DNA from: an uncultured Acidobacteriota bacterium
Lineage (GTDB): Bacteria; Acidobacteriota; UBA6911
Assembly (NCBI GenBank): GCA_963827655.1
Contig: CAWHCF010000001.1
Span: 48,399 to 112,398 of the forward strand
Length of the DNA stretch: 64,000 bases
Reading direction: 5' to 3'
Program-made: the position numbers and the translations under genes
Notes under the pieces: model-generated
The model's input: only the letters and a program-made list of their open reading frames with translations
The model's database searches: none
What the model was told of the DNA's origin: nothing
Part shown: piece after piece, positions 7,163-56,249 of the stretch
How positions within the stretch are numbered: the first letter of the stretch is position 1
Layout of the letters: each line of letters begins with the position of its first letter

Positions 7163-7435
7163 AATTAGCGGTGTAGGTACGGCTTTTTGAAGGGAAATGA
7201 TGAATACGCAACTCGCGTTTTCTTTGCATCTTTGCATGTTCGAGGTTAATGCTGTTAATGCGACTTTACGATTAAGTCAGGGAGATTGCCGGCTGAGCGA
7301 GGAAGCCCTGCGTTCCTGAACTCTCGCCGGCCGTGAAGTGGGAACGGTTTCATCGGCGATATCCGTCAAATTCCGATTGACGGGCAGTTGGCCATTTTAA
7401 CCATAATTCGCAGCCCAGGGTACTTGGGAGTGTGT

Positions 7436-26070: not shown

Positions 26071-27206
26071 TTGAAGATAGACCGGGTTGAAACTTTCTTG
26101 CTTCGAGCCCCGCTGGCGCGCGCTTTCGCGTACTCTCAGGCCTGGTACCGGGAACGTACCGCCCTGATTGTCCGAGTTGTGACGGACGATGGATTGGAGG
26201 GCATCGGCGAGTGCTTTGGACCCGCCGCGGCAGTCTCCGCCGTGATTGAAAGCCTGTACGCGCCTGCTTTGATCGGCGCCGACCCGCTGGAAAACGAAGT
26301 CCTCTGGGACCGGTTGTACAACATGCTGCGCGATCATGGCCGCAAGGGTTTGCCGATCGAAGCTCTCAGCGGTATCGACATCGCCCTGTGGGATCTCAAA
26401 GGCAAATCGACAGGGCTTCCGGTTCACAAGCTGCTGGGCGGCTCATTCCGCAGCAAGGTCCAACCGTATGCAACCGGCTTCTATCGACACGATAGCATCG
26501 GAAACCAGGATGAAGCCCTGTGCGGCGAAGCCGAGGGCTACCTCGAAGCAGGACTCAGAGCGATGAAAATCAAGGTGGGCTTTGGCTTGCTGGAAGACCA
26601 GCGCACGGCGCGCGCCATTCGCCGTGTCACCGGCGACCAGGTTCGCTTGATGGCCGATGCGAATCACGCTTACGATGCGTCGACCGCAATCCGGCTGGGA
26701 CGAGTCCTGGAGGAGGAGCAATATGACTGGTTTGAAGAACCGGTCACGCCAGAGGACACCGAAGGATATCGATTGGTTCGAGACGCTATCGACGTTCCGA
26801 TTGCCGGGGGGAGGCTGAATTCACTCGCTTCGGCATGAAGAAGCTGATCGTGAATCGACTGGTGGACATTGTCCAACCCGATTGCTGCGCCACCGGCGGG
26901 TTGACGGAGGCCCGGCGCATTGCGGTTCTGGCCAACACCTTCGGGGTTCAGTGCGTTCCCCATGTTTGGGGCACCCGGATCGCCATGGCCGCCGCATTGC
27001 ATTTTATCGCATCGCTTCCGCCCACGCCGCCCTCGCTCGCGCCCGCGGAGCCGCTGCTGGAATACGACTGCTCACTCAATCCACTGCGAGAGGCGGTGAT
27101 CAACGAACAGATCACTCCGGATCGCGAAGGCATGGTGGAAGTACCTCAGGCGCCTGGCCTCGGCGTCACGTTGAACCTCGAATTCGTACGGCCCAAAAAT
27201 CGGTGA
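26071..27206 (+). CDS. Mandelate racemase/muconate lactonizing family enzyme (D-galactarolactone cycloisomerase-like); -1 frameshift in G-run 26806-26811
   Basis: SGIDIALWDLKGK, KIKVGFG, MADANHAY, WFEEP; adding one G gives IAGGEAEFTRFG, then DIVQPD, PHVWG and PGLGV. Confidence 0.88.
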
Positions 27207-29800: not shown

Positions 29801-32005
29801 CTAGCGCAGCAACTGGGCGGCGGAATCGATGTGAGCCGCGAGAGCCACAAGGCAGTCGCGTACCACCTGCACCCCGGCCTTTGCCTCCTCCGGTCGCTTT
29901 TGCTCAAGCGCCTCGCGCACGTAGGGAATCGTTTTCACCCCATAGCCCGTGTAAAAACCGGGCGCGTAGAGCTGGTGTTTAAACCAGGGCCTTCCTGGCA
30001 GACCACCCGGCGCGGTCAGCAGTCGTTCGCTTTGATAAAGGAGACGGTTCAGGGCGCGAAGGTGCGTCGCCTCGCGATCGAAAATGCCGCCCGAAGCGGC
30101 TGCCTGAGCATAAGCGTGCTCAAAGGCTTCTGCGCTCTTCCTCACAGCCTGTTGCGCCGTCTTCAGCGGCCCGATGTCGGTTCCAGCTTCTTTCGAGGCG
30201 AGCTTTTCCAACTCGTCCACATATCGTCCGATGGTATCGGCCAGGTTGGTGAATTCAAACGGAAGCACCGGCGCGCTGGCCAGGCGCATCACTGCCGTCC
30301 CGTCAAGCTGAGCCAGCGCCCGCCCATAGACAAAGGTCGTATCTGAAAAGCGCGTATACCACGCGATCGAGTCATAGATGGAATGGTAAACCCCTCCCCC
30401 TCCTTCACCGCCGAAACTGAGGTTGAGTGACGCGACGCCCAGATGATCGATAAAGGCAGTATAGTCCGAACCGGAACCCAGGGCGCCGATGCGCAGGTCG
30501 GTCCGCTCCTCAATGTCCTTCTTCTCGCTTTGCTCCTTCGCCTGTTCCAGCTGTTTTTTTCGCGCCTCGTCGTACACTGATTGCCCGCCATTCGGATCGG
30601 GGATATCACGAGCTACTTCGTGCATGAAGCGTTCAAGGGAGTGGGACCCCGAGGCTCGATACGAGCCTTTTCCATTACTGTCGCCATTGATGTATATGAC
30701 CGCCTTCTCCTTGAGTTCTGCGGCATGATGCTCAACCCATTCGGTCGAGCCCAGAAGACCCTGCTCTTCCCCGTCCCACGCGGCCAGAATGATGGTTCGC
30801 TTGGGCCGCCAGCCCTGCTTCAGAAGCTCGCCCAAAGCCCGGGCCTCCTCCATGAGCGCGATCATTCCGCTCACCGGGTCAGCGGCTCCGTTGACCCACG
30901 CGTCGTGGTGATTTCCCTGGATGATCCATTCGTCAGGAAAAGCAGTCCCTTCGATTCGGGCAATCACGTTGTACACCGTGTGGAGATCCCAGGCGTGGGA
31001 TACCCTGAAGTGCACCAGTGCCGGCCCCGGTCCCACGAAATAGGTGAGGGGAAGAGCGCCACGCCACGATTCGGGCGCCACCGGACCGCGCAGGTTCTTC
31101 AGAATCGGGAGCGCATCACCCCAGCTGATCGGCATCACCGGAATCTTGGTGACGGTAGCCGCCTGTTGCAGCGAAAGCCGCTTGGCTTGGGCCGTTGCTC
31201 CGACCCCGGGGGTCAGAGGGTCGCCGGGGTGGATGGGCATATCGGCGACACTGCCGCGCTGCACGCCGTGCTCGGGCCTGTAGGGACCCTCCGCGTAAAC
31301 CGGCCCTTGATAGTATCCATCATCTTTAGGGTCCGAGTAGATCAGGCATCCGATCGCCCCATTTTCATGCGCGACCTTCGGCTTGATTCCGCGCCAGCTT
31401 GCGCCATAGCGCGCCAATACGATTTTCCCTTTCACATCCACGCCCATCTTTCTCAGTGTTTCATAGTCCTCCGGCACGCCGTAGTTAACATAGACCACCT
31501 GCGCAGTGACATCGCCGTCGACCGAATAGGCGTTATACGTGGGAAGCTGATTCGCGTCGGAAGAATCAGGATCCTCGACAATGGCAGGTTCTTTCAACCG
31601 GGCCAGATATTTTCCGGGCGAGAGAAGTTCAAGCCTGCGCTCCTTAGGCATCGGAAACAGGACGCGGTACTCCTCGATCGAGGCTGAAAGTCCCCAGGAT
31701 CTGAATTTGTTCAGGATCCACTCGGCGTTCTCCTTGTCTCTCGGGGAACCGAGATGATGCGGTTCTGCAGCGAGCACATCCATGTATTCCCGCAAGAGCC
31801 TGGCATCCGGGATGGCGCGCATTTTCTCTTCCCAGGCCATCTGCTCCTTTGCTTGTGCCCCTGAAAAACCGCGCTTCGAGCTCCCCTGCTGCGCTCCGAT
31901 GCCGGCGATCCCGATGGAAAACGGAAGGGCCGTCAGGGTGCAGAGTAAGGCGATCTTGATTGACGATTGACGATTGACGATTGACGATTGGGGTTTGGCA
32001 GCCAA
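29801..32005 (-). CDS. Glutamate carboxypeptidase II-like M28 peptidase (PA and transferrin-receptor dimerisation domains)
   Basis: VYVNYG, GNHHDAW, GAADPVSG, WDGEEQGLLGSTEW, GSGSDY, YHSIYD. Start uncertain. Confidence 0.92.
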   Translation of the reverse strand: MAAKPQSSIVNRQSSIKIALLCTLTALPFSIGIAGIGAQQGSSKRGFSGAQAKEQMAWEEKMRAIPDARLLREYMDVLAAEPHHLGSPRDKENAEWILNKFRSWGLSASIEEYRVLFPMPKERRLELLSPGKYLARLKEPAIVEDPDSSDANQLPTYNAYSVDGDVTAQVVYVNYGVPEDYETLRKMGVDVKGKIVLARYGASWRGIKPKVAHENGAIGCLIYSDPKDDGYYQGPVYAEGPYRPEHGVQRGSVADMPIHPGDPLTPGVGATAQAKRLSLQQAATVTKIPVMPISWGDALPILKNLRGPVAPESWRGALPLTYFVGPGPALVHFRVSHAWDLHTVYNVIARIEGTAFPDEWIIQGNHHDAWVNGAADPVSGMIALMEEARALGELLKQGWRPKRTIILAAWDGEEQGLLGSTEWVEHHAAELKEKAVIYINGDSNGKGSYRASGSHSLERFMHEVARDIPDPNGGQSVYDEARKKQLEQAKEQSEKKDIEERTDLRIGALGSGSDYTAFIDHLGVASLNLSFGGEGGGGVYHSIYDSIAWYTRFSDTTFVYGRALAQLDGTAVMRLASAPVLPFEFTNLADTIGRYVDELEKLASKEAGTDIGPLKTAQQAVRKSAEAFEHAYAQAAASGGIFDREATHLRALNRLLYQSERLLTAPGGLPGRPWFKHQLYAPGFYTGYGVKTIPYVREALEQKRPEEAKAGVQVVRDCLVALAAHIDSAAQLLR

Positions 32006-32074
32006 TCGGATACATGATGGAGTTCATTCGTCACACACCACAATCGTCAATCGTCAATCGTCAATCGTCAATCG
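31958..32074. repeat. Inverted heptamer arrays (GATTGAC)n ... (AATCGTC)n
   Basis: Left 31958-31990, right 32041-32074. Confidence 0.9.
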
Positions 32075-32083
32075 AAGGTTCTC

Positions 32084-32974
32084 CTACTTCGGATTCGCCG
32101 CGGGGCCGGCTGTGACGACCTTCGTGAACGTTCCATTCCCCAGGCGCTGAAACGGTCCGCCATCCTGTGAGAATTCCTCAACAAGAGTGAACGTATTCTC
32201 CGAGATGACCGAAATGGCACGCCTGAGGCGAAAAGTCTGCCCCTTTACCTGAACCGGTACGGCCTCCAGCCGAATCCCGGGACCTGTCCACGTGCCTGTG
32301 TTGAACATGACGATGCCGTTGTTCCGGTACTCGAAATAGGTGTAAAGCTTGCTGGCAGGATCAAATCCGATGAAGCCGTTTCCGCGCAGGATATCCTTGC
32401 CTGCTCCGGTTTCGAATCGGCTTTCAAGAAACTTTCCGTCGAGGACACGGTCGAACGTCATTTGGCCTTTCAGTTCGCCGCCCGGACCCAGCGGGCTTTC
32501 CCTCGCGACCATCTCGAATTTCCATTGCCCTACGAAGTAGTCCAACTTCTGCACCGGCGAGAGATCCTTCTTTGCAATCACGTCTCCAACCCGCTTGAGG
32601 TCGTACGTGAAACCCAGCTTCTGCGCTCCGAGGTTAACTTCACCCTTCCCATCGAGCGTCTCCCCTTTAAGCACAAAGTCAAAGTTGACGGTGACTGGTC
32701 CCTGCGGCGCGTCGATCTGAACGACGGCCGTGACCTTTTCCCCATCCCGTTTGATTTCCTTGAATGGAATCTCTGTCGTTCCGGTTACTCCGGAAATACT
32801 GCCGGAGTAAGTTTCGCCCTCCTTCTTGAAAGAAACGGTGGCTTTTCGCTCTCCCTGGAGGGATCTCACCATTCCTTCCCACCGTCCTTGCAGCGGGTCC
32901 TGTTGCGCTCGGCCCGTCATCGCCGCCGCAAAGACCAAGAAAACCGCAAACGCGGGTACCATCCTTCGAGTCAT
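32084..32974 (-). CDS. Secreted two-domain beta protein, C-terminal DUF1579-like domain
   Basis: Signal peptide ending AQQ; LDYFVGQW...SPLGPGG...GFDP...YTYF. Confidence 0.65.
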   Translation of the reverse strand: MTRRMVPAFAVFLVFAAAMTGRAQQDPLQGRWEGMVRSLQGERKATVSFKKEGETYSGSISGVTGTTEIPFKEIKRDGEKVTAVVQIDAPQGPVTVNFDFVLKGETLDGKGEVNLGAQKLGFTYDLKRVGDVIAKKDLSPVQKLDYFVGQWKFEMVARESPLGPGGELKGQMTFDRVLDGKFLESRFETGAGKDILRGNGFIGFDPASKLYTYFEYRNNGIVMFNTGTWTGPGIRLEAVPVQVKGQTFRLRRAISVISENTFTLVEEFSQDGGPFQRLGNGTFTKVVTAGPAANPK

Positions 32975-33079
32975 AGTTCTTCTCCGAGATCTTGAGAGGA
33001 TTCAATTATTACCATAAGCCATAGACGCTGCCAAACTGCCGTTCGCGTTTCTTGGCGTCTTTGTGGTAAACGAGTTGCG

Positions 33080-34573
33080 ATGAACGGATATGACGTAGCT
33101 GTGATCGGGGGCGGTCCCGCGGGTTCGACCGCCGGTAGACTCCTGGCGGAATGGGGTTACTCGGTCGTCCTCTTCAACCGGCCTGAGAAAAGAAGGCCCA
33201 GTCTGGCCGAGTCCTTGCCGCCGAGCACCCGCAAGCTCTTTGGCTTTCTGGGCATTCTCCAGAGACTCGAGGACGCCCGCTTTTACCGGTCGAGTGGCAA
33301 CACGGTCTGGTGGGGCGATCCGGAGGGGAGTGTCGAACGATTCGGCGGGTCATCCCAATCCTGGGGTTACCAGGTACTGCGCAGCGATTTTGACCAGTTG
33401 CTCCTTGACCTGGCTGGATCCGCCGGAGTTCACGTGCGTCCCAACGCAACGGTCCTGAAAGTGAACCTGGAAGCCGACCACCGGGTTTCGATTCAATATG
33501 ACGATGCCGGGGACACGCGAGCCGCATGCGAGGCTCGATTCGTGCTCGATTGCTCGGGTCGCAGCGGCGTGATCGCGCGCCGCGGATTGCGCAAGAAAGA
33601 AGCTCGCTACAGCACACTCGCGATCGCCGCCGCGTGGCGCAATGAGACTGGTTGGGGACTGAAAGACGCAACTCACACTCTGGTCGAGGCCTATCCCGAC
33701 GGCTGGGCCTGGTCAGTACCCCTCTCGGCGCAGCAACGCCACTTCACGGTCATGGTGGATCCGCAGCAGGTTCAGGCTTCACGAGGCCGCGGCCTGGAAG
33801 AGATCTATTTTGATGAGATGGGAAAGACCGTCCAGTTCAAGACCATTCTCCGCGCTGCGACAACGGAGGGCGCTCCGTGGGGGTGTGACGCCTCGCTTTA
33901 CTCTTCCGAGACGTTTGCCGGCCCGCAATTCATTCTGGTGGGAGACGCCGCCTCGTTTATCGATCCTCTTTCCTCGTTCGGCGTAAAGAAGGCCCTGGCA
34001 TCAGCATGGATGGCCGCGGTCGTGGCAAACACTTGCTTCAAGAAACCGGCGCTACGGCAGATCGCACTCGACATGTTTTCCAATCGCGAGCGTCAAGTTT
34101 ATGCGAGTTATCTCCGGCAGAGCGCGCGCTATTTTCAGCAAGCTTCCATGCGCTATCCGACTCCATTCTGGATCGCTCGCGCCCAGGTTGCGGAAGGTTC
34201 GCAGGTCTGGGACCCTGACGAGGAGGAGCTCAAGCGCGATCCCGACGTCCTGGCCGCCTTCGCTGCTCTCAAGGGCAGCCGTGCCATTCGGCTGCAATGC
34301 GCACCGGATGTGCGCGTGGAGAACAGGGCCGGCATCGAGGGAAACGAAGTGGTACTGAAAGAAAGCCTGGTCAGCCCGGGCCTGCCCTCCGGAGCTCGAT
34401 TCCTGGGCGGCGTGGACCTCCCACGGCTGGTTGAAATAGCAGGAGAACACAGCCAGGTGCCGGATTTGTTTGCGGCCTACAATCGAATCTGCCCTCCGGT
34501 CGACCTGGGAAACTTCCTCGGCACGCTTTCTGCTCTCCTGGCCAAGGGGATACTGAGGAACCTTCACCACTAA
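33080..34573 (+). CDS. qhpG: FAD-dependent monooxygenase QhpG-like (CTQ biogenesis)
   Basis: VIGGGPAG, GWAWSVPL, VGDAASFIDPLSSFG, small C-terminal winged-helix-like tail; directly upstream of qhpA as in characterised qhp loci. Confidence 0.8.
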   Translation: MNGYDVAVIGGGPAGSTAGRLLAEWGYSVVLFNRPEKRRPSLAESLPPSTRKLFGFLGILQRLEDARFYRSSGNTVWWGDPEGSVERFGGSSQSWGYQVLRSDFDQLLLDLAGSAGVHVRPNATVLKVNLEADHRVSIQYDDAGDTRAACEARFVLDCSGRSGVIARRGLRKKEARYSTLAIAAAWRNETGWGLKDATHTLVEAYPDGWAWSVPLSAQQRHFTVMVDPQQVQASRGRGLEEIYFDEMGKTVQFKTILRAATTEGAPWGCDASLYSSETFAGPQFILVGDAASFIDPLSSFGVKKALASAWMAAVVANTCFKKPALRQIALDMFSNRERQVYASYLRQSARYFQQASMRYPTPFWIARAQVAEGSQVWDPDEEELKRDPDVLAAFAALKGSRAIRLQCAPDVRVENRAGIEGNEVVLKESLVSPGLPSGARFLGGVDLPRLVEIAGEHSQVPDLFAAYNRICPPVDLGNFLGTLSALLAKGILRNLHH

Positions 34574-34598
34574 CCGCAAAGACTCGAAGACACCAAGG

Positions 34599-34625
34599 TT
34601 CGTTCGGGACTTCGCCCCGAACGAA
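34599..34625. other. Intergenic hairpin between qhpG and qhpA
   Basis: TTCGTTCGGG-7 nt-CCCGAACGAA perfect 10-bp stem. Confidence 0.5.
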
Positions 34626-34771
34626 AGGCCCCTCGTGAACAACTACCTGTTGCTTTGAATGCTTCGCTGAGCGCCTAAGACACGCGAAGAGACTCAAATA
34701 GACTCCAGGGTGCTGCTTATTGGATTGAATCGACCATAGCCTGTGTGCTACAAGTCAAGACGTTCCGTCTT

Positions 34772-36508
34772 ATGTCGAAAGCACAGTTTCTCGCCCGCCT
34801 GGTCTCTTTCTACTTTGTCGTTCTTTCACTTTTCGCTCAACAGCCGGCTCCACAACAGCCCAGTCCCGCCAGGGCCATCGAAGAGAAGCCCGAGGATGAT
34901 GGAATTCCGATCACAAGCACGGTGGTCCGAACGGCGTGCGCCCCGTGCCACACGATCGATGATAAGAACCGCATGTCGCGCATCTCCTACCGGCGCACCA
35001 CGCCCGAGGGATGGCAGGAAACCATCCGGCGGATGGTTTCTCTGAACAAGGTCGAGCTTACGCCCAAGGATGCCCGCGAGATTGTGAGATATCTCTCGAA
35101 TCATCTGGGTCTCGCACCTGAAGAAGCCCGCCCTGCTCTGTTTGAGGTCGAGCGGCGGATGATCGATTTCAAGTACACGGATCGGGACATCGAGCAAATC
35201 TGCGCCAGGTGTCATTCGCTGGGCCGGGTCATTTCGCAACGCCGCACCAAGGAGGAATGGGAACTCCTCATTGCCATGCACCGCGGGTACTATCCGCTCT
35301 CGGACTTTCAGGCATTCCGGCGCACGGGACCTCCTCAGACACAACCGGGACCGGACGGGCGCCCGCCGGATAACCGTCACCCCATGGAAAAAGCCGTGGC
35401 GCATCTAGCAGAAGCTTTCCCGCTGAAGACCAACGAATGGTCGGCGTGGTCCGCCAACATGCGCGCGCCGAAGCTGGCGGGACGCTGGGCGCTCTCAGGC
35501 TACCAGGTCGGACGTGGGGCGCTCTACGGGCAGATGGTGGTCACGACAAATCCGGAAGCGGAAGACGAGTTTGTGACCCAGGTTCGATATGCGTACGCGC
35601 GCTCCGGGAGTTCGGTCGAACGCGCGGGAAAAGCGCTGGTCTACACCGGATTCCAGTGGCGCGGCCGTTCGTTTGACGGCAAGGACGAGAAGAGCGGACT
35701 ACGCGAGGTGATGTTCGTCGAACGCGATTGGCAGCGGATGTCGGGGCGCTGGTTCACAGGCGCGTATGACGAACTGGGAACTGACATAAGACTGCAACGC
35801 ATAACCAACGATCCTATCGTTCTGGGTGTTGAACCGATCGCTTTAAAAACCTCGTCTTCCGCCAGGACGGTTCGAATTTTCGGCGCCAATTTTGCGGCCA
35901 AACTCACGCCCGCCGACGTAAACTTCGGCCAGGGAGTTAGAGTCACCCGAATCGTCAGCGCCGATCCGGATAGTGTCTCGGTCGAGGTCGAAGTCGCAGC
36001 CGACGCTCCCGTGGGCGCGCGGGATGTGTTCGTTTCCGGCGCCGCGCGCCATGCGGCTGTCGTCGTTTTCAACAAGACAGATGGAATCAAGGTTCGTCCA
36101 CAGGCAGGGATGGCACGAGTAGGCGGCGCAAACTTTCCTAAACAATACCAGCAGTTCGAAGCGGTCGCTTACAACAATGGCGCCGATGGCAAGCCCGACA
36201 CCAAAGACGATTTGGATCTTGGAATTGTCGATGTCGCCTGGAGCCTGGAGGAGTACACGGCGACATTTGGGGACGACGACAAAGAATTCGTGGGAACAAT
36301 CGACGCTTCGGGACTCTTCACGCCCAACATCGACGGTCCGAACCCCAAGCGCAAGAACCAGACCAACAACTACGGAGACGTCTGGGTCGTCGCCACGTTT
36401 AGCCCGGAAACAGGCGGCCAGTCAGCCAGACCCATCCGGGCTCGCGCCCACCTTCTCGTGACCGTTCCGGTCTACATGAGGTGGGAGCCCTCAGAGGTGA
36501 CGCGATGA
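34772..36508 (+). CDS. qhpA: Quinohemoprotein amine dehydrogenase alpha subunit (di-heme)
   Basis: CAPCH and CARCH heme motifs; RISYRRTTPEGW, VYTGFQWRG, MARVGG, GLFTP..GPNPKR, LLVTVP. Confidence 0.93.
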   Translation: MSKAQFLARLVSFYFVVLSLFAQQPAPQQPSPARAIEEKPEDDGIPITSTVVRTACAPCHTIDDKNRMSRISYRRTTPEGWQETIRRMVSLNKVELTPKDAREIVRYLSNHLGLAPEEARPALFEVERRMIDFKYTDRDIEQICARCHSLGRVISQRRTKEEWELLIAMHRGYYPLSDFQAFRRTGPPQTQPGPDGRPPDNRHPMEKAVAHLAEAFPLKTNEWSAWSANMRAPKLAGRWALSGYQVGRGALYGQMVVTTNPEAEDEFVTQVRYAYARSGSSVERAGKALVYTGFQWRGRSFDGKDEKSGLREVMFVERDWQRMSGRWFTGAYDELGTDIRLQRITNDPIVLGVEPIALKTSSSARTVRIFGANFAAKLTPADVNFGQGVRVTRIVSADPDSVSVEVEVAADAPVGARDVFVSGAARHAAVVVFNKTDGIKVRPQAGMARVGGANFPKQYQQFEAVAYNNGADGKPDTKDDLDLGIVDVAWSLEEYTATFGDDDKEFVGTIDASGLFTPNIDGPNPKRKNQTNNYGDVWVVATFSPETGGQSARPIRARAHLLVTVPVYMRWEPSEVTR

Positions 36509-37941
36509 AGAAGCTTGGCCTGCGCGAGTTTCATCGATTTGAGGCGGCCGGTACGACCTTTCTTTACCTGGTTCCCAGCGCCGCGGTTCTTGCCCTCGAC
36601 CACGCCGCTTCGGCAGTCCTCGAGGCGCTGGGTCGCGGGCCGATGACACCCCAGCAGCTGATCAGCGAACTTTCCGGCCGTTTTTCACCCGCTGATCTCA
36701 AAGACACGATCTCGGAACTGATCGGCGTCCGCGCCATCGGTGACGTCGAGGCAAGCGAAAGCTCCAGTCCTCGAACCCTTCCACCGATGCCTTTCCCCCT
36801 GACCACCATGGTTCTCAACCTGACCAACCAGTGCAATCTGAGCTGCACTTATTGTTACGAGTACGGCCAGGACAAGATCGTCGACACGAAGGACCCGAGA
36901 CGGGCCCGTTTCATGACCGAGGAAACGGCGGCTCAGAGCGTCGATTTCATGCTCAAACAATCGGGTCCCAACAAGACTGTGCACCTGACATTCTTTGGCG
37001 GTGAAACCCTTCTGAATTTTCCCGTGCTGAAAGCTACCCTTGGGTATGCGCGCCGGCGCGCGGCGGAGATGGGAAAGGAAGTGGACTTCAGTCTCACGAC
37101 CAACGCCACGCTGCTGCGTCCGGAGACCATTGAATTCCTGGCGGAGAACCATGTCGGCGTCACCATTTCGATCGACGGGCCGAAGGAAGTCCAGGACCAG
37201 TTTCGCGTGTTCCACAATGGAGACGGAAGCTACGACATCATCGCGCCCAAGATTCGCGAGCTGCTGCGACGCCACCGCACTCGCCCTGTCGGCGCGCGCG
37301 TCACGCTCACAGCCCAGACCCTCGACATCACCCGGATCTTCCGCCACCTGACCGACGAAATCGGCTTCTGGGAGGTGGGGTTTGCGCCGGTAACTACTTC
37401 GTCCAATCAGCAATACGCAATCAGCGACGCCGGCTTCGATCACATGCTCAACCAGTTCCGCTTGCTGGCTGCTGAATTCCTGGAATATTCGCTCCAGGAT
37501 CGCCGGCACGGTTTCTCGAACGTCAAGGACACGCTCGAGGAGATCCACAAGGGACACAGCAAAGCCTACCCTTGTGGCGCCGGCCTGGGGCTGCTGGGCG
37601 TCTCCACCGACGGTGACGTCGCGCTTTGCCATCGCTTCGCCGCCTCGGATGCGCACAAGCTGGGAACCGTCCGAGACGGTATCGATTCGTTGGTGCAGAT
37701 TGATTTTCTCGAGAAAAACCATATCGCCAGCAAAACCGACTGCAGCAGGTGCTGGGCCCGGCCGCTCTGTTCCGGCGGTTGTTATCACGAAGCTTATGTG
37801 CGCTACGGCACGACCACACATCCTAATCTCCATTACTGTGAATGGATCCGCGGCTGGACCGACACATGCCTGCGCATCTATGGCGAGCTCGCGGAACGCA
37901 ATCCGAAATTCCTCGCGCAATTCGATGAGGGGGCGTCATGA
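36505..37941 (+). CDS. qhpD: Radical SAM/SPASM thioether-forming maturase
   Basis: CNLSCTYC; SPASM CGAG...CHRF...CSRCWARPLCSGGCYHE; ATGA overlaps with qhpA and qhpC. Confidence 0.93.
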   Translation: MKKLGLREFHRFEAAGTTFLYLVPSAAVLALDHAASAVLEALGRGPMTPQQLISELSGRFSPADLKDTISELIGVRAIGDVEASESSSPRTLPPMPFPLTTMVLNLTNQCNLSCTYCYEYGQDKIVDTKDPRRARFMTEETAAQSVDFMLKQSGPNKTVHLTFFGGETLLNFPVLKATLGYARRRAAEMGKEVDFSLTTNATLLRPETIEFLAENHVGVTISIDGPKEVQDQFRVFHNGDGSYDIIAPKIRELLRRHRTRPVGARVTLTAQTLDITRIFRHLTDEIGFWEVGFAPVTTSSNQQYAISDAGFDHMLNQFRLLAAEFLEYSLQDRRHGFSNVKDTLEEIHKGHSKAYPCGAGLGLLGVSTDGDVALCHRFAASDAHKLGTVRDGIDSLVQIDFLEKNHIASKTDCSRCWARPLCSGGCYHEAYVRYGTTTHPNLHYCEWIRGWTDTCLRIYGELAERNPKFLAQFDEGAS

Positions 37942-38312
37942 AGCATCTCAGGACCATTAACCGAAAGGCCGGACTCCTCGAGCAATACCTGGAGTCGTCA
38001 TCGGCCCGCGAGAGTCAAACTGACGAGGCCGGCGGCGATGTCGTGGCTCTCCAGCAGGGACCACCACAGCAACCGCCAGGCCCTCACTTTCCGCTGGGCT
38101 GCTCTCTGCAATTCGATCCGGGCTGGGAAACAGATTCGAATGGCGGCACCGCCGGTCTATGCCAGCCTGTGGAACGGGACCTGTTTGACTGCCATACGGG
38201 TTGTTACTGGCCGGCACAAGTCCCTGATCAACTCAATCATGCGCCGGACTGGACCAGTAAATGCGCCGCCGCCCAGAAAGACTGGCGCAAGATCGATCTG
38301 ATTTTTCCGTAG
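37938..38312 (+). CDS. qhpC: Quinohemoprotein amine dehydrogenase gamma subunit precursor
   Basis: Leader MKHLRTINRKA...VVAL; core GCSLQFDPGWE...LCQPVERDLFDCHTGCYWPAQVPD...DWRK. Confidence 0.95.
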   Translation: MKHLRTINRKAGLLEQYLESSSARESQTDEAGGDVVALQQGPPQQPPGPHFPLGCSLQFDPGWETDSNGGTAGLCQPVERDLFDCHTGCYWPAQVPDQLNHAPDWTSKCAAAQKDWRKIDLIFP

Positions 38313-38403
38313 GAAATTCGGTGACAGGCTCCAAATTGCGTGGCGAAAAACCAGTCTCTTGGTCCCTCTTAACCGCGCAATTTGGAGCCTGTCACCGAAT
38401 TTC
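38313..38403. repeat. Perfect 28-bp inverted repeat (REP-like stem-loop)
   Basis: GAAATTCGGTGACAGGCTCCAAATTGCG at 38313-38340 and its exact complement at 38376-38403. Confidence 0.9.
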
Positions 38404-38451
38404 GCCCGGACCTGGCTGTTTTTCGACAAAAACTAAGCAGTCAAGACCGTC

Positions 38452-39558
38452 ATGAGATCCAGGATCGTACTCATCACTGCCGGATTGCTCTTACTTGGGG
38501 CGACCCAGGGACAGGATCGCCGCGACGACCCCGCCCCGGGCAACGGCACACTTTATCTCGGCGTCTTCTCCAAGAAGATCGTGATTATCGACGAAGCCAC
38601 GGGAGGGGTCACCGGCGAGATTCGGCTCAAGACCGGCATGCCCAGACAGATGTCGTTATCTCACGACCGAAAGCGGTTCTATGTAGTGAATGCGAACATG
38701 GAAGAGATGGAGGTCGTGGATATCTCTTCCAGGCAGGTGCTCGACACCTTCCGGATCGGTGAAGGCGACAAAAAGGTTCGCATTCGCAGCTTCCAGGTCG
38801 ATCCGCAGAATCGCTACATGATCCTTCTGACCAAAACCACGACCAAGCTCGCCGATCGATTTGAGATCGGCCCTCCGATGCTGCTCCAGTACGACCTCAA
38901 AGAGCACAGAGTTTTTCGAACCATACCGTGGCCCAAGAATGAGGAGCGCGAGTTTGCCAACCTGTTGTTCTCGCCTGACGGGAAATTCCTCTACTTCTTT
39001 TCCGATGATGTTCTGATATACGACACGACTGAATTCAAGCAGGTGGACAAGTGGGAGATTTCACGTCCGATCGAGGAGGGATTCGGGAGAATCAATTTTG
39101 GACCGCTGGACATCATTAACGAAGAGCCGGGCTTCTTCACCGGACTGTTCACCGTCCAGGATCCGGTGCAAAACCGCCGCGTCATGGGAGTGGCGCGAGT
39201 CAACCTGAGCGAAAAGAGCGTCGATTTCTACGCGCTCGGTCCCGCCACGCGCGTCAGCTTTTCCCTGGCGCCGGGGCGCAAACGGGCCTACGGTTTGATG
39301 GAACAGGTCGGTCGTCACGAATTCTGGACCTTCGACCTGGAGAATCGCCGTCTGCAAGGCAAGACGGAGTTCGCGGGACGACCGCGTATGGAGTTGAAGA
39401 CCAGCTCAAACGGCAGGATCCTTTACATCTATGAGGCTGGCAATACTATTGATCTCTACGACGCAGCCACGTACCGCCATCTTCGCACCATCGCTCTCGA
39501 CGCGGACATGGCTACGGACCTCTACGTCATGCCCCCAGCCGGGAGCACCGGCAAGTAG
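38452..39558 (+). CDS. qhpB: Quinohemoprotein amine dehydrogenase beta subunit (beta-propeller)
   Basis: Signal peptide; propeller repeats (LSHDRKRFYV, FSPDGKFLY, SSNGRILYI, IDLYDA); position after qhpC. Confidence 0.78.
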   Translation: MRSRIVLITAGLLLLGATQGQDRRDDPAPGNGTLYLGVFSKKIVIIDEATGGVTGEIRLKTGMPRQMSLSHDRKRFYVVNANMEEMEVVDISSRQVLDTFRIGEGDKKVRIRSFQVDPQNRYMILLTKTTTKLADRFEIGPPMLLQYDLKEHRVFRTIPWPKNEEREFANLLFSPDGKFLYFFSDDVLIYDTTEFKQVDKWEISRPIEEGFGRINFGPLDIINEEPGFFTGLFTVQDPVQNRRVMGVARVNLSEKSVDFYALGPATRVSFSLAPGRKRAYGLMEQVGRHEFWTFDLENRRLQGKTEFAGRPRMELKTSSNGRILYIYEAGNTIDLYDAATYRHLRTIALDADMATDLYVMPPAGSTGK

Positions 39559-39692
39559 AGACCCATAGCACTGCTGTTCGCAATTGCGGTGTATGGGCAG
39601 TTGAGGCCTGAGAGGCCGACAGGGAGCGGGTCAATTACAGGCCGTCGCAAGTAACGTGATCCGGAGGATTTAGCCTTAAAGAGTTCTTTTCC

Positions 39693-39832
<140 letters not shown>

Positions 39833-40086
39833 AAGCTTTTGTGCCACTAGGGGGCCGGACGGGCTTGATAGCCCGTCCGCACATGGATCGGTGGTTTTGC
39901 AACAGCCTCGGATGGCCCGCGCCGCAGACCAATTTTTTCACACCTTCTGACCGGCGGGGCTACTCACTGCCGGGCCTTCGGCCCTGGCGACAAGCGAGCC
40001 GACTCCTATCGTTCTGCCCAAACACGTTACTACCATCATTATGAACCAGCACCTGGCGTCTTCACTCCCTGGCGGTGGATTCTGAC

Positions 40087-41803
40087 ATGAGCCGTGTCCG
40101 TTTGATGGACCCGAACCTGCGCAAGGCGCTGGCGTACGTCTTTCCATATTGGCGCCGCCTGCTCCTGGTCCTGTCGCTGAGCGTGGTCAGCACCGCGCTG
40201 TCACTCTACATTCCCTATCTTTCAAAAGGCCTCGTGGATCAGGCTCTTCTCGGCCGCGACGCAGCGGCGCTGCTTCGCATTGTACTGATGTTCACCGGGA
40301 TAGCCTTGCTCAGCTTCGGGCTGAACCTTCTGAGCGGTCTCAGGTACACGCGAGTTTCGGCCGAGATTCTGTTCGATATGCGACTGGCGCTGTACCAGCA
40401 CCTTCAGCGCCTGTCACCTCGATTCTACGCGCGCACGCGCCTCGGCGATATCGTCTCGCGCATCAACAATGATATCGGCGAAATCCAGCGCATTGCCGCG
40501 GAAACAGCGCTGGCCTGGGCGGGCAACGTGCTCTTTCTGGCCGGCACAATCACCATCATGCTATGGCTCGATGCTCGCCTTTTTTCCCTCAGTGTGGCGC
40601 TGCTGCCTTTCGGCATCTGGACTCTCAGGCGCTACCGCAACCGGCTCTCCGCAGCCGTGTCGATCCTGCGCCAGCGCAGCGCGGATATAGGAAGTTTTCT
40701 TATCGAGACTCTTCAGGGGATGCGGTTGATTGTGACCTCCAATGCGCAGCAGCGGGAGGTTGCGCGCTTCAGAAGCAAGAACGACAGCTTCATCCAGGCG
40801 TTGATGTCGATGCAATTGTCCTCCTATCTGTCCGGCGGAATTCCGGGGCTGATCCTTTCGGGAAGCACCGTGCTCGTTTTCCTGTACGGCGGTCACAGGG
40901 TTATCGAGGGAACCCTCACCATGGGAACTTTCGTAGCCTTCGTCGCTTACCAGATGCGGCTGCTCCCGCCCATCCAGGCGCTCATGGGACTCTACGCCAA
41001 CCTCGCGACTGCCTCGGTATCGCTGCGCCGGATCCATGACATCCTCGACATCGCCCCGGAAGTGAGTGAACGCCCGGATGCCACCACTCTGCGCCAGGTG
41101 CGCGGCGATATCTGTTTCGAAAATGTCACGCTTTCTCACGACCGCGGGGCGCCGGCGCTCGAGAACATCAACTTTTCAGTGCGGAGCGGCGAGCTTCTGG
41201 CGCTGGTCGGCCCGAGTGGCAGCGGGAAATCCACCGTGGCGGATTTGCTCCTGCGCCTTCTTGATCCCGATTCGGGTGTGGTTCGGCTCGACGGGTACGA
41301 CCTGCGCGAACGTCAGCCTCATGGATCTGCGCCGGCACATCGTGCTGGTGGACCAGGCGCCCTTTGTCTTCAACGCTTCGATCGCCGAAAATATCCGCTA
41401 TGCGCGCCCCGAAGCATCCGACCCGGAGGTTGTCGAGGCCGCCCGCGCCGCCGGAATTGACCAGTTCATCCTCAGCCTGCCTGAGAAATATCAGACCCCA
41501 GTGGGAGAACGCGGCCTGGCTCTGTCGGCCGGCGAACGTCAGCGGATAGCGATTGCGCGCGCGTTCCTCGCCAACCCCGCGGTTCTGATCCTGGACGAGC
41601 CCACCGCTGCGCTTGATCCGCTTTCAGAACGCCAGGTTGTGGCCGGATACGAGGCGATCATGCGAGGCCGCACGACCATCCTGATCTCGCATCGCCTGCA
41701 ACTGGCTTCCAGGGCAGATCGGATCGTGGTGCTGGCGGGCGCGAAGATCGCGGAACAAGGAAGGCCGCAGGATTTGCGGTACCTTGGCGCGTTCGTGTCA
41801 TAA
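40087..41803 (+). CDS. qhpF: ABC exporter, fused permease/ATPase, QhpF-like (+1 frameshift near 41308)
   Basis: TM domain, GPSGSGKST, LSAGERQRIAIARA, ILDEPT; split over ORFs 40075 and 41066; qhp context. Confidence 0.8.
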
Positions 41804-41804
41804 G

Positions 41805-42058
41805 GATTGACGATTTACGATTGACGATTGACGATTGGAGCTTGGTGATAGTTGTTCAAACTTCTTCAATAGCCGGATGCAATGATTGCGCAACCAGCAC
41901 TTGACTTCTTTTGACAAACCGGGAGAGTGATTGACGATTTACGATTGACGATTGACGATTGGAGCTTGGTGATAGTTGTTCAAACTTCATTCAATAGCCG
42001 GATGCAATGATTGCTGCAACCAGCACTTCGAACTTCTTTTCGGACAAAACCGGGAGAG
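41805..42058 (+). repeat. Tandem duplication of about 125-130 bp covering a heptamer array and the qhpE start
   Basis: 41805-41928 and 41929-42058 are near-identical; the first copy has several small deletions. Confidence 0.85.
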
Positions 42059-42732
42059 GGATCCGCATCGCCATCGTCGACAGCGGCATTCATGCTGCGC
42101 ACCCGCACGTAGGTGGTGTCGCCGGCGGCATCGGGATTTCTGAGGACGGAGACGAAACCGGCGATTTCCTGGACCGCCTGGGGCATGGAACTGCAGTCGC
42201 CGCGGCTATCCGCGAGAAGGCGCCGGAGGCCGAGCTCTACGCGATCAAAGTGTTCCAGCGCTCGCTCGTTACCAGCGTCGAGAGGCTGGTACAGGCAATC
42301 AATTGGGCGGCGCGCCACGGCATGCAGCTGGTCAATCTGAGCCTCGGCACCGGCAAAACGGAGCATGAGACATCGCTACGGCCAGCGATCGATGCCGCGA
42401 GCCGATGCGGCACCCATCTGGTCGCCGCCTGCGAGAACTCCGGCGCGCGCTGGATGCCCGGTAGTCTGGACGGAGTCGTTCCGGTGGTGCTGGATTGGGA
42501 TTGCCCGCGCGATGAGTATCGCGCCCGCGTGGCGAAAGATGGACGAACCATTTTTGGCGCCTCGGGGTACCCGCGCGACATTCCCGGAGTTTCACGCGAG
42601 CGCAATCTGAAAGGAATCAGTTTTGCGGTCGCGAATATGACCGGATTTGCGGCTCGGGCGCTGGAAGCCCATCCGGGCTCATCGCTCGAGGACCTGGTTC
42701 GGATCCTGGGAAAATCAGGGACATCCCACTAG
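42007..42732 (+). CDS. qhpE: Subtilisin-like S8 leader peptidase, QhpE-like
   Basis: IAIVDSG, GHGTAVA, GISFA catalytic triad; short, no signal peptide; qhp context. Confidence 0.85.
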   Translation: MIAATSTSNFFSDKTGRGIRIAIVDSGIHAAHPHVGGVAGGIGISEDGDETGDFLDRLGHGTAVAAAIREKAPEAELYAIKVFQRSLVTSVERLVQAINWAARHGMQLVNLSLGTGKTEHETSLRPAIDAASRCGTHLVAACENSGARWMPGSLDGVVPVVLDWDCPRDEYRARVAKDGRTIFGASGYPRDIPGVSRERNLKGISFAVANMTGFAARALEAHPGSSLEDLVRILGKSGTSH

Positions 42733-42828
42733 TTTCCCGATTTCTGCCAGAAACGGTAAGCGGGCAGCTCCCTGGTTTCTCTCAATACTTGCAGAAATTG
42801 GGAAACCAGTGGGACGTCCCTGATTCTT

Positions 42829-44061
42829 ATGAGTATGCCTCGGAGAGACTTTCTGAGAGCTGCGGCTCACATCGCGACTGCCTCCGCTGGATTGGCAACG
42901 GCGGCGGAATCGGAACAGCAGCGGCGCATCGGGCGAATTATTCGAGAGTACGATGCCCAGGGCTGGCATCGCACGGGAAGCGAAACCGACAATTCTTCGG
43001 CCGAATGGCTGGCCGGACTGATGCGGTTAAGCGGGCTACAGCCCGTGATGCTCGAACCATTCGCTTTGAGCCGGATTGAGCCTCAGGCGGCATACATAGA
43101 AATCGACGGCCGGCGAATTTCCGGCCTGCCGCTGTTCGACGGCGCCTTCACGGGACCCGAAGGTCTTTACGGGCGTCTGGGACCCCTCGACAGCAACGCC
43201 GAGATTACATTCTGCGAAGTCCCTGCCGCCGGCCCTGCGCCCGAGTTTGAAGTTGCCCGAAGCCGCGGAAAGCAGAAAGCGATTGTGACCGTCACCCGCG
43301 GCCGCCGCCCCGGTCTGGCTCCCAGAAACGCCGAGAAGTTCAGCGCTCCTTCCGGACCGGTTGTCCTGCAGGTGGAAAGCGCAGCCGGAGACTGGCTCGC
43401 GCAGCAGTCCGCAAGCGCCCCCAAGGCGAGGATCGTCGCACAGGTTCGGAGAATCAGCGTGCAGGCCCGCAATGTAATTGGGACACTCCGCGGCAGAAGC
43501 GCAAATCACGCGCCGCTGGTTGTAATGACGCCCCGAAGCGGGTGGTGGAACTGCGCCGGCGAGCGTGGGGGCGGAATTGCCTGCTGGCTCGAGATCATTC
43601 GCGCCCTTGTGGATAGCAATCCAGCGCGCGACGTGCTTTTCGTCGCCACGAGCGGCCACGAACTGGGGCATCTGGGTCTGGAGCAGTTTCTCGAACGGCG
43701 TCCCAGGTTGGCCCGGGGCGCCCTGGCATGGGTTCACCTGGGGGCCTCGATCGGCGCCGCCCAGGAACCCCGTTTGCAATACTTTGCTTCCGATAAGGAG
43801 CTCGAGACGACTGCGGTCGCAGCAATGGAAGTCGCCGGCGCCAGACTGCCGGAGCCGGCTTCCCGCGGGACAGTTCCGCCGGGCGAGGCACGGAACGTTC
43901 ATGAGCTTGGGGGTCGTTACTTTTCGGTATCGGGAGGAAATGCGCTCTTCCACCTGGAGGCGGACCGGTGGCCGGCGGCAGTCGACGTTGGAGCCGTTTC
44001 GCTATACGCAAATGCCTTCGCCAGCCTGACCCTCAGGCTGGCGAAGACCACCAGTGCGTGA
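42829..44061 (+). CDS. Tat-exported M28/PA-like protein with atypical metal-binding motifs
   Basis: PRRDFLR Tat motif; HRTGSE, ARNVIGTL, VMTPRSGWW, TSGHELGHLG, FHLEAD. Confidence 0.65.
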   Translation: MSMPRRDFLRAAAHIATASAGLATAAESEQQRRIGRIIREYDAQGWHRTGSETDNSSAEWLAGLMRLSGLQPVMLEPFALSRIEPQAAYIEIDGRRISGLPLFDGAFTGPEGLYGRLGPLDSNAEITFCEVPAAGPAPEFEVARSRGKQKAIVTVTRGRRPGLAPRNAEKFSAPSGPVVLQVESAAGDWLAQQSASAPKARIVAQVRRISVQARNVIGTLRGRSANHAPLVVMTPRSGWWNCAGERGGGIACWLEIIRALVDSNPARDVLFVATSGHELGHLGLEQFLERRPRLARGALAWVHLGASIGAAQEPRLQYFASDKELETTAVAAMEVAGARLPEPASRGTVPPGEARNVHELGGRYFSVSGGNALFHLEADRWPAAVDVGAVSLYANAFASLTLRLAKTTSA

Positions 44062-44072
44062 AGGAGGGTACG

Positions 44073-44972
44073 ATGAAGATTCTCGTGTCTGGCTCCACCG
44101 GGCTCGTGGGCAAAGCTCTTGTTTCTTCTCTCACGGGAGCAGGGCATCAGGTGACTCGACTGGTTCGCTCCCGCTCCGGCGCCGGTGAGAAAGATATTTA
44201 CTGGGACCCTGCGACCGGCAGCCTGGACTCCAGCCGGCTCGAAGGTCTTGATGGCGTGGTTCATCTCGCCGGTGAGAGCATCGCGGAAGGACGATGGACC
44301 GCTGAGAAGAAAGCTCGCATCCGCAATAGCCGGGTCAAAGGGACACAGCTTCTCGCCGATGCTCTGGCTCAACGAGTGCAGCGGCCCAGGACCTTGATCT
44401 GCGCGTCCGCGATTGGTTATTACGGCGATCGAGGCGCCGAGATTCTTCGCGAAGACAGCAGACCAGGCTCAGGGTTTCTGCCGGATGTCTGTCGTGAGTG
44501 GGAAGCCGCCACAAAGCCGGCGGCCGAGAGCGGAATTCGCGTGGTGAATCTCCGCACGGGGCTGGTTCTGAGTTCTTCCGGCGGCGCACTGCCGAAAATG
44601 CTCCCCCCTTTCAAGCTCGGCGCCGGCGGAAAGCTGGGCACGGGCCAACAGTTCATGAGCTGGATTTCAATCGACGACCTGGTCGGCGCAATCCAGCACG
44701 CGCTCGAGAAGAACAGTCTCAGTGGCCCGGTCAATGCTGTCTCGCCGCATCCTGTCACTAACCTCGAGTTCACCAAGACTCTCGGGCGCGTCCTGTCGCG
44801 GCCCACGATCTTCCCGATGCCGGCTTTCGCCGTTCGATTGATGTTCGGAGAGATGGGCGAGGATCTCTTGCTGGCAAGCGCGCGCGTCGAACCCGCGCGC
44901 CTGGCGGGCTCGGGCTACCTATTCCGCTATCCGGTGCTGGAAGGCGCCCTGCGACACGTGCTGCGGAAATAA
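44073..44972 (+). CDS. TIGR01777 family NAD-dependent epimerase (YfcH-like)
   Basis: ILVSGSTGLVG, VHLAGESI, ASAIGYYGD, GFLPDVCREWE, SWISIDD. Confidence 0.92.
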   Translation: MKILVSGSTGLVGKALVSSLTGAGHQVTRLVRSRSGAGEKDIYWDPATGSLDSSRLEGLDGVVHLAGESIAEGRWTAEKKARIRNSRVKGTQLLADALAQRVQRPRTLICASAIGYYGDRGAEILREDSRPGSGFLPDVCREWEAATKPAAESGIRVVNLRTGLVLSSSGGALPKMLPPFKLGAGGKLGTGQQFMSWISIDDLVGAIQHALEKNSLSGPVNAVSPHPVTNLEFTKTLGRVLSRPTIFPMPAFAVRLMFGEMGEDLLLASARVEPARLAGSGYLFRYPVLEGALRHVLRK

Positions 44973-52914: not shown

Positions 52915-53084
52915 ACAACAACTACCACGAAGACGCAAAGACCTGACACGGCCGAAACCAAAGTTTTCTTCGTACAGAAGCCCGAGCTGACAGACTCGAA
53001 GAAGCGCTAAGAACCTTGTTGGCAGAGGCTGGCTGTCCAGCCGCAAGATTTACCCGAAAGTGTCAGCGTGATAGACTTCCAGAA

Positions 53085-56000: not shown

Positions 56001-56249
56001 ACGTTCGGCAACAGCGGCCGCAACGTGGTCACCGGCCCAGGATTGGTGAACGTCGATGTTTCACTGAGCAGGCAATTCCCGCTTCTGGGCGAAAAATGGC
56101 TCGAGTTTCGCGCGGAATTCTTCAATCTCTTCAATACCCCGCCGCTCGGCTTGCCCGAAAGAAACGCCGATCAAACGGCGACCTTCGGGAAGATCCTGTC
56201 GGCGGGTCCGGCGCGGCAGATCCAATTCGCCTTGAGATTCGCCTTCTAG
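53085..56249 (+). CDS. TonB-dependent receptor, Oar-like, with carboxypeptidase regulatory-like N-domain
   Basis: Signal peptide, GRVTDVSGSAVPGA, LPLNGR, QDDWK, NNFAPRFG, C-terminal RQIQFALRFAF. Confidence 0.92.
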   Translation: MRARLAFLGLFLAAGIVRPLPAWAQAASGTIAGRVTDVSGSAVPGAVVTVTRAETESDRKTETGPRGDYTVPLLPAGSYRVSASRPGFRTAIREGIQLEVDEKARIDLVLEIGPIEQIVSVQGDAPIIQGGTSSLGTVIDSNYLRNLPLNGRAFLQLGLLSPGSAPPAPGSELSTQSASGLHFNGARESANSFLLDGGDNNDWFINRIVVSPSLEFIQEFKVQSSNYNAEFGRNGGAQVLIVTRSGGNRFHASAYDFFRNAVLDARNLYDPPDQPIPQFQRNQFGFFAAGPIHKDRAFFSGSYEGARVRQAITRTARVPTPAEKSGDFSGLGSPVRDPFTGQPFPGNRIPADRLDPIGQSIARLYPDPNRTDPQANLVSTPVGRLDSDQVSVRTDFKLSTRDSLFLRYSFAGDDSLEPFNEGATNLPGFGSLIVGRAQHLVISQTQVFRPTFLHEWRFGFNRLRREVLQENVGRDVAGTLGIPGLSSDPVDLGMPVVVVPGFEQLGDSAALPIVRHDNTFQIASNLTWVRDKHYWKAGLDLRRFQVNGFNHVFARGQFIFQPTFTGQSLGDLLLGLPTVTIRGLNDNPQAMRTGSYNFYLQDDWKARPNLTFNLGLRYEFNPAPVDVHDRMVIFDTTSHQLVRVGQNGVSRSGLESDRNNFAPRFGFNWSPGASFRTTIHGAYGIFYDASTLVSNSSLYFNPPYFELSLFVPSANQLLSLSDPFPETNGIGPPPTVNSLAPNFRNSYAQHWNLTVDRQVGSNTLARIGYVGSRGVKLIRRRDLNQPPPGPGPVDARRPIPGFGNITLIEPAGSSIYHSIQTSLERRFAEGIHFLGAYAFSKSIDDASDFLATSGDDNYPQDNARIFLERGFSNFDLRHRFTFTGLFTVPYGRGRPPSGGVSYLLSDWQFGLITSMQSGFPFTPKLSRDNSNTGNIGGLFGSDRPHLVGDPRLEKSTPDRFFNTDAFVIPVPYTFGNSGRNVVTGPGLVNVDVSLSRQFPLLGEKWLEFRAEFFNLFNTPPLGLPERNADQTATFGKILSAGPARQIQFALRFAF

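Follow-up and report, generated by a model that had tools for sequence, protein, structure and literature searches.

We examined a 64,000-nucleotide stretch of DNA (hereafter the window) from an uncultured Acidobacteriota bacterium of the UBA6911 lineage (assembly GCA_963827655.1, contig CAWHCF010000001.1), and its sequence indicates that positions 33080-42732 very probably hold a true qhp operon, belonging to an acidobacterium akin to Bryobacteraceae and encoding a quinohemoprotein amine dehydrogenase (QHNDH) and a dedicated line of maturation proteins. Open reading frame (ORF) listing and family scans place seven co-oriented genes on the + strand (Table 1), at or near the positions given to them in an earlier note on this DNA. 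Bit scores against NCBIfam were judged by NCBI's curated cut-offs, which five of the seven proteins exceed (QhpG, QhpA, QhpD, QhpC and QhpE); the Pfam scan covered the 57 window ORFs of at least 90 residues at E <= 1e-5, about 15 of which had no match. A chance assembly of generic domains can be ruled out because the seven specific families stand in a conserved order and because QhpA exceeds its cut-off in none of 14 control genomes. The earlier note had described a complete QHNDH system in an Acidobacteria-like genome. The host assignment agrees with the nearest loci, which come from Bryobacteraceae, Bryobacterales, Solibacteraceae and Vicinamibacterales metagenome-assembled genomes (MAGs); "complete" is right for the gene content and wrong for the assembled sequence, in which qhpF is split over two frames. 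The qhpABCDEFGR system and the role of each protein are described in the available text of PMC7876137; the cluster type is thus already well known, and the present one is a further example in a soil acidobacterium.

Table 1. Coordinates and predicted products of the qhp genes and of the repeats between them. Scores are in bits, followed by the curated cut-off.
Feature	Position	Strand	Predicted product or content	Family model
qhpG	33080-34573	+	497 aa, FAD-dependent peptidyl-tryptophan dihydroxylase	NF049967, 252.9 vs 240
qhpA	34745-36508	+	587 aa from GTG, di-heme alpha subunit	TIGR03908, 500.8 vs 274.35
qhpD	36481-37941	+	486 aa, radical SAM/SPASM thioether maturase	TIGR03906, 578.7 vs 453
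qhpC	37938-38312	+	124 aa, gamma-subunit precursor	NF037958, 122.3 vs 50
qhpB	38452-39558	+	368 aa, divergent beta-propeller subunit	TIGR03907, 66.4 vs 223.2 (under cut-off)
Composite dispersed-repeat insertion, qhpB-qhpF spacer	39565-40052	no strand	488 bp; hairpin 39692-39835; weak Acido-Lenti-1-like module 39951-39985	
qhpF	40075-41803	+	ABC exporter (transmembrane and nucleotide-binding domains), broken by a single additional base at about 41312	generic MsbA-like models
Tandem duplication, two ~124-nt copies	41805-42053	+	GATTGAC heptamer array, upstream region and first qhpE codons	
qhpE	42007-42732	+	241 aa, short subtilisin-like leader protease	NF049966, 173.1 vs 165; Pfam Peptidase_S8

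The window encodes the same seven protein roles as the QHNDH systems of Paracoccus denitrificans and Pseudomonas putida (PDB 1JJU and 1JMX; QhpG 7CTQ). QhpA matches four QHNDH-alpha Pfam domains (PF09098, PF14930, PF09099 and PF09100) and aligns with the alpha subunit of that system over ~515 residues that include both heme motifs: its two CxxCH motifs (CAPCH and CARCH) are in register with the heme motifs of 1jmx_A, and its N-terminus, judged by eye, is hydrophobic. QhpD, whose translation shows CNLSCTYC and C-terminal Cys-rich motifs, passes its equivalog cut-off, as do QhpE and QhpG, the last of these being closer in sequence to halogenases.

The gamma precursor gives the most detailed correspondence. 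Residues 53-124 of QhpC align end to end with the solved gamma chains 1jju_C and 1jmx_G (72 residues), and every residue of the cross-links and of the cysteine tryptophylquinone (CTQ) cofactor is kept: C55, E64, C75, D81, C85, C89, W91 and D97 correspond to C7, E16, C27, D33, C37, C41, W43 and D49 of the solved chains. No variation occurs at these eight positions (four Cys, two Asp, one Glu and the CTQ Trp) across a set of 55 sequences, made up of that of the window and 54 orthologs with complete ORFs drawn from 63 related loci. The same alignment shows features that set the acidobacterial-type proteins apart. A fifth Cys, C109 (window 38262-38264), is likewise invariant in all 55, whereas both solved gamma chains have Ala there, and the residue preceding the CTQ Trp is Phe in 43 sequences and Tyr in 12, as against Trp in the solved enzymes. 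The core begins at about residue 49, which leaves a leader of ~48 residues, compared with the 28 residues given for characterised QhpC in the available text of PMC7876137. A DVVALQ leader motif is common to the window and the related loci, and orthologs with clean MKHL-type starts are 107-124 residues long.

Several results weigh against the assignment of the whole region to a QHNDH. QhpB scores far under its family cut-off, although its match to TIGR03907 is significant and nearly full-length (E 2.3e-18, profile positions 12-323 of 338), and a phmmer search with it against the PDB found no QHNDH beta chain at E <= 1. The same kind of search with QhpG ranked the halogenase CmlS (137.2 bits) above the solved QhpG, 7ctq (59.9 bits), and a 10-sequence QhpG profile kept that ranking (205.7 against 148 bits). 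Finally, no regulator (qhpR), aldehyde dehydrogenase, c-type cytochrome or cupredoxin family was found among the 57 window ORFs, as the earlier note had observed for qhpR, aldehyde dehydrogenase and electron acceptor. That note had also said that its call would fall if 38452-39558 or 33080-34573 grouped with non-Qhp families. What we find is in part of that kind, since QhpB lies under its cut-off and QhpG lies nearer to halogenase structures, yet fold, synteny and family hidden Markov models (HMMs) place both in Qhp.

For QhpB, which was aligned with 22 syntenic orthologs, an AlphaFold2 model had a mean predicted local distance difference test (pLDDT) score of 86.9 and a predicted TM-score (pTM) of 0.83. 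Foldseek ranked 1jju_B and 1jmx_B first and second for this model (E 1e-18, TM-scores 0.71-0.79), with a sequence identity of only 16% to this best-matching PDB fold; the next match, an archaeal YVTN propeller, had TM-scores of 0.54-0.57. Orthologs clustering with it occur in 40 of the 63 related loci, where they follow qhpC. Because the predicted fold matches both solved beta subunits and the gene keeps its place after qhpC, we assign 38452-39558, on the strength of the model, as a divergent QhpB with the seven-bladed propeller fold of that family. It has a signal-like N-terminus (judged by eye) and had no match in the Pfam scan.

The case of QhpG is more intricate. Its translation shows GGGPAG and GWAWSVP motifs, and it passes the QhpG HMM (NF049967) narrowly; QhpG-like genes in five other genomes of the phylum score 115-209 bits, under the cut-off of 240. 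Its best pairwise and profile matches in the PDB are Variant-B flavin-dependent halogenases (CmlS 3I3L, CndH 3E1T, PltA 5DBJ), with which it has the FAD (flavin adenine dinucleotide)-binding motifs and the WxWx(I/V)P motif in common. A Lys in the tunnel above the flavin is essential for halogenation. The column that holds it in five halogenase structures (CmlS, CndH, 8zop, PltA and ChlB4) is Ser71 in the window protein, T in the consensus of the acidobacterial QhpG profile and Ser/Thr across the acidobacterial G proteins. The CmlS HMM (NF033113) gives the window protein 169.3 bits against a cut-off of 900, less than the 252.9 bits of the QhpG HMM. According to the available text of PMC7876137, CmlS is also the closest structural neighbour of the true P. 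putida QhpG, so a halogenase outscoring 7ctq is to be expected for this family. We therefore keep the protein in the QhpG family, given this kinship of CmlS, the higher score of the QhpG HMM, Ser71 in the Lys column and the position of the gene directly 5' of qhpA in relatives.

If QhpG were nevertheless a halogenase, the genes might serve to make not a QHNDH but, for instance, a thioether peptide with halogenation or another modification, exported by the ABC (ATP-binding cassette) protein and resembling the ranthipeptides, a class among the RiPPs (ribosomally synthesized, post-translationally modified peptides). The scores of 33080-34573 against flavin halogenases and its WxWxVP-type motif would suit such a product, as would the matches of QhpD to PapB, SCIFF and other RiPP maturase models of NCBIfam, all of them under the cut-offs of those models. 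We consider it very improbable: a di-heme QhpA at 500.8 bits and a propeller of QhpB fold are encoded in the same co-oriented run of genes, the peptide core aligns with solved gamma subunits over its full 72 residues, and the Lys column, the HMM scores and the relationship of CmlS to true QhpG all speak for a QhpG in its operon rather than a halogenase.

The CTQ cofactor and a flavoprotein maturase also occur in the LodA/GoxA oxidases with their LodB/GoxB maturases. That system has no radical SAM (S-adenosylmethionine) enzyme, gamma peptide or heme subunit. The window G scores 139.6 and 103.2 bits against the LodB and GoxB models, far under their cut-offs of 400, and there is no LodA-like gene in the window.

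The earlier note had counted the ABC exporter as an intact gene, having missed a frameshift: qhpF does not read through in a single frame. A frame 1 ORF (40075-41460) encodes the transmembrane domain and Walker A, with ABC_tran positions 1-52, and a frame 2 ORF (41066-41803) encodes ABC_tran positions 54-137; the frame switches at ...CTGCGCGAACGTCAGC..., with a single additional base at about 41312. The two frames between them show Walker A, the signature motif, Walker B and the H-loop, and once base 41312 is skipped there is one 575-codon frame with no internal stop and no other lesion. NCBIfam has no QhpF-specific model, and the best matches are to generic MsbA-like models. The state of this gene matters for function because, in the available text of PMC7876137, all qhp genes are required for the periplasmic enzyme.

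We think it likely that the extra base is a consensus error of the assembly (8.18 Mb in 53 contigs, 90.3% complete). When contigs of four soil or rhizosphere metagenome runs (X1, X2, X3 and X5) were aligned over 39400-42000, base 41312 was absent from two contigs of X2 and one of X3, all ~99% or more identical to the window over the aligned parts; the X3 contig over the site is 411 nt long and has one other difference. In addition, the two halves of qhpF are adjacent in one frame in 34 of the 35 related loci that have both, the sole exception being a locus (L093) broken in several genes. A programmed +1 frameshift can be rejected, the shift being absent from those 34 relatives and from the near-identical contigs. 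Frame breaks also occur elsewhere in the assembly. The window's mandelate racemase/muconate-lactonizing (enolase-family) gene, at 26071-27206, is split into two ORFs at a G6 run near 26810, where G7 would restore an IAGGE motif and join them; this looks like a homopolymer-length consensus error. The window's 1077-aa OMP_b-brl_4/CarboxypepD_reg receptor at 53016-56249 has 152 paralogous loci in the genome, of which 82 (e.g. C23:56162-59621) gave colinear tblastn segments in at least two frames; this could reflect either consensus errors concentrated in a paralog family or many decayed copies. Among the 29 genes for which proteins from related loci allowed a check, two, one of them qhpF, are multi-frame.

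Some observations tell against an assembly error. The extra base is not within a homopolymer and hence is not of the classic long-read type; X1, the best-matching run, has no contig across 41236-41323 and is silent on the base, and X5 is likewise off the site; and the contigs without the base may come from other strains, those of X2 also lacking a 488-bp insertion upstream of qhpF. The alternative is that the qhp operon is real and its qhpF a genuine, very recent, strain-specific pseudogene, in which case the gamma subunit would not be exported, no active enzyme would form, and the flanking repeats would mark relaxed selection. The frameshift is, after all, present in the sequence as given and outside any homopolymer, the insertion 5' of qhpF distinguishes this strain from the X2 population, there is a 124-nt duplication 3' of the gene, and loss would be plausible for a cluster that occurs unevenly in relatives (only 2 of 41 have a QhpD over the cut-off) and that, in the available text of PMC7876137, needs every gene for the periplasmic enzyme. 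We nonetheless regard a pseudogene as unlikely, though well short of negligible, given that the lesion is single, with no stops or further shifts, that the other six genes are intact, that many frame breaks occur elsewhere in the assembly and that the ~99% or more identical contigs of X2 and X3 show no break at 41312. Because the break in qhpF is most likely a consensus error, the organism itself probably has a working operon. More generally, with so many single-base frame breaks, the "pseudogenes" of this assembly should not be taken at face value.

The qhp cluster is common in Acidobacteriota. Of 401 genomes sampled from the phylum, 31, distributed over 25 of 228 genera, have a QhpA over its cut-off; for QhpD the count is 2 among 41 relatives, most of which belong to the same family. 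Both counts of genomes take in G034, which is a non-carrier. Searching public genomes turned up 63 qhp loci, all in MAGs, with a best QhpA identity of 66%; they belong mostly to Bryobacteraceae, Bryobacterales, Solibacteraceae, Vicinamibacterales and Terriglobia, and two are from Gemmatimonadota. The order A-D-C-B-F-E is colinear in 23 of the 63, seven of which have G upstream; in relatives G is directly upstream of qhpA. By QhpA identity the loci fall into a near group of 23 (at least 53%), 16 of them with a G match, and a distant group of 40 (under 53%; 34-51%, mostly 42-48%). Other Acidobacteriota and Gemmatimonadota loci, for example those from Bryobacteraceae (L031), Vicinamibacterales (L037) and Gemmatimonadales (L046), show the full G-A-D-C-B-F-E order of the window, with QhpA identities of 53-66% and QhpC identities of 61-78%, and have the fifth Cys and the DVVALQ motif in common with it; they differ in having qhpF in one frame, as in the 34 of 35 above, and in B-F gaps of -67 to 133 nt, compared with 516 nt here. 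One typical Bryobacterales-type cluster (L081) is in a MAG labelled Bordetella parapertussis, which is probably a mislabelled bin.

In the window G stands at the 5' end and F comes before E, whereas the Paracoccus order is reportedly E-F. The earlier note had taken the F-E order as a hint of a different substrate, regulation or acceptor; this is not supported, as both F-E and the upstream G recur in acidobacterial relatives. Nor does gene order carry weight as an argument, because the available text of PMC7876137 reports the qhp operon in >1300 species with varying arrangement, order and strands, and because QHNDH/qhpA is already listed in Acidobacteria in the available parts of a preprint on UBA6911 Acidobacteria and of another on grassland-soil MAGs.

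The distant, Bryobacterales-type loci differ from the window in their flavoprotein: none of the 40 has a canonical QhpG match within 10 kb. Two 99% complete genomes of this type (G309 and G387) gave no match to NF049967 at E <= 1e-30 and none to the acidobacterial QhpG profile at E <= 1e-8. Eleven distant-group loci, among them L057, L062, L069, L071, L073, L076, L077 (6632-7639), L078, L081 and L092, encode a conserved protein of ~330 residues without a Pfam match. Comparison of this family with QhpG by hhalign (94% probability, E 9e-8, 301 columns) points to a remote QhpG homolog; BLASTP of the 335-aa family against the window QhpG found no match, and only the profile-profile comparison linked them. 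From its sequence, this protein is a candidate compact QhpG variant missed by current models.

The mechanism we propose for the cluster is drawn wholly by homology from the Paracoccus and Pseudomonas system, with the roles as assigned in the available text of PMC7876137. The radical SAM enzyme QhpD would hold the 124-aa QhpC precursor via its ~48-residue leader; QhpG would dihydroxylate W91, which with C85 would become CTQ; QhpE would cut off the leader, and QhpF would carry the cross-linked peptide to the periplasm. There the gamma peptide would assemble with the secreted di-heme QhpA and the propeller QhpB into an enzyme predicted to oxidise primary amines to aldehyde and ammonia, with electrons leaving CTQ by way of the two hemes for an acceptor whose gene lies elsewhere. 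By this analogy, periplasmic oxidation of primary amines is probable in a Bryobacteraceae-like soil organism, which bears on soil carbon and nitrogen turnover. For the QHNDH field itself little is added, the system, its maturation logic, its wide distribution and its variable order being already in print in the available text of PMC7876137.

A tentative further possibility, about which we are more doubtful than hopeful, is that the acidobacterial and gemmatimonadal QHNDH forms a distinct subtype rather than a plain ortholog, marked by the fifth gamma Cys, a DVVALQ leader of 31-48 residues, Tyr or Phe before the CTQ Trp, a divergent beta subunit and a halogenase-like QhpG. If so, and with neither a regulator nor an aldehyde dehydrogenase nor a small acceptor encoded alongside, its amine range and electron acceptor could differ from those of the proteobacterial enzymes. 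The fifth Cys, the long leader, the divergent beta subunit and the halogenase-like QhpG are all clade-specific features open to biochemical test.

The absence of linked qhpR, aldehyde dehydrogenase and acceptor genes is shared by the relatives examined: the 13 scanned representatives of neighbour clusters common to at least three related loci included no aldehyde dehydrogenase or regulator. In the source genome there are six Aldedh genes, all on contigs other than that of the window, and one cupredoxin domain, inside a 1353-aa frame; none of these candidates could be tied to the cluster.

Both spacers flanking qhpF, of 516 nt (B-F) and 203 nt (F-E), are filled with repeats; the B-F gaps of relatives given above are extrapolated values for the 23 colinear loci. 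An X2 contig joins 39564 directly to 40053, from which it follows that 39565-40052 is an insertion polymorphic in nature. Its modules have 15-114 genome copies each. Nowhere else in the genome does the full 488 bp recur (partial matches reach 309 nt at most), which makes the insertion a composite rather than a single element. Within it, an inverted pair of GTCATTT-type heptamer arrays folds into the tabulated hairpin (-64.3 kcal/mol, z -7.8), and the match to the Rfam Acido-Lenti-1 motif (RF01687) reaches 26.2 bits, under the gathering score of 37. Genome-wide, with 150 of 2225 candidates scored, there are at least 91 RF01687 matches at E <= 0.01, at least 37 of them over the gathering score, often as inverted pairs ~90-100 nt apart (starts ~135-140 nt apart; e.g. 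C26:67069-67114(-) with 67210-67255(+)); the motif here behaves like the ends of a small dispersed element of the miniature inverted-repeat transposable element (MITE) kind. In the F-E spacer, the duplication comprises two direct-repeat families, D1 (60 nt, 100% identical) and D2 (25 nt, 100%), spaced 124-125 nt, and the second ~124-nt copy carries the qhpE start. Segments of its GATTGAC array have ~650 BLAST matches in the genome, a count inflated by register shifts, and heptamer arrays with at least four units number 434 genome-wide, 12 of them in the window. Being genome-wide, the arrays are not a qhp-specific signal, and the repeats around qhpF are copies of dispersed elements that are not part of the qhp system.

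Scans for regulatory signals added little to this picture. Between 32900 and 43000 there were 3 promoter-like and 13 terminator-like sites, no excess over shuffled sequences (means 2.9 and 10.0). RNA scans around the cluster found no tRNA or riboswitch-like leader, and Rfam over 31500-44500 gave only two sub-threshold matches, both within the B-F insertion, one of them a spurious miRNA model on the heptamer hairpin.

The genes adjoining the cluster do not appear to belong to it. We rejected as members both the downstream 410-aa gene (42829-44061) and the upstream DUF1579 gene, neither of which had a tblastn match in any of the 63 related loci. The 410-aa ORF has a twin-arginine-like N-terminus (RRDFL, by eye), and it had no NCBIfam match at E <= 1e-3 and no Pfam match at E <= 1e-5. 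Among the distant-group loci, an OMP_b-brl_4/CarboxypepD_reg outer-membrane protein is found near qhpA in 18 (directly upstream in L074, at 5151-9744), and a CxxCH-containing protein of ~360 residues without a Pfam match is nearby in nine. In the source genome a 38%-identical homolog of the CxxCH protein adjoins another such receptor, on contig C3; because this homologous pair stands elsewhere in the genome, the receptor and CxxCH protein look like a general module rather than a QHNDH partner.

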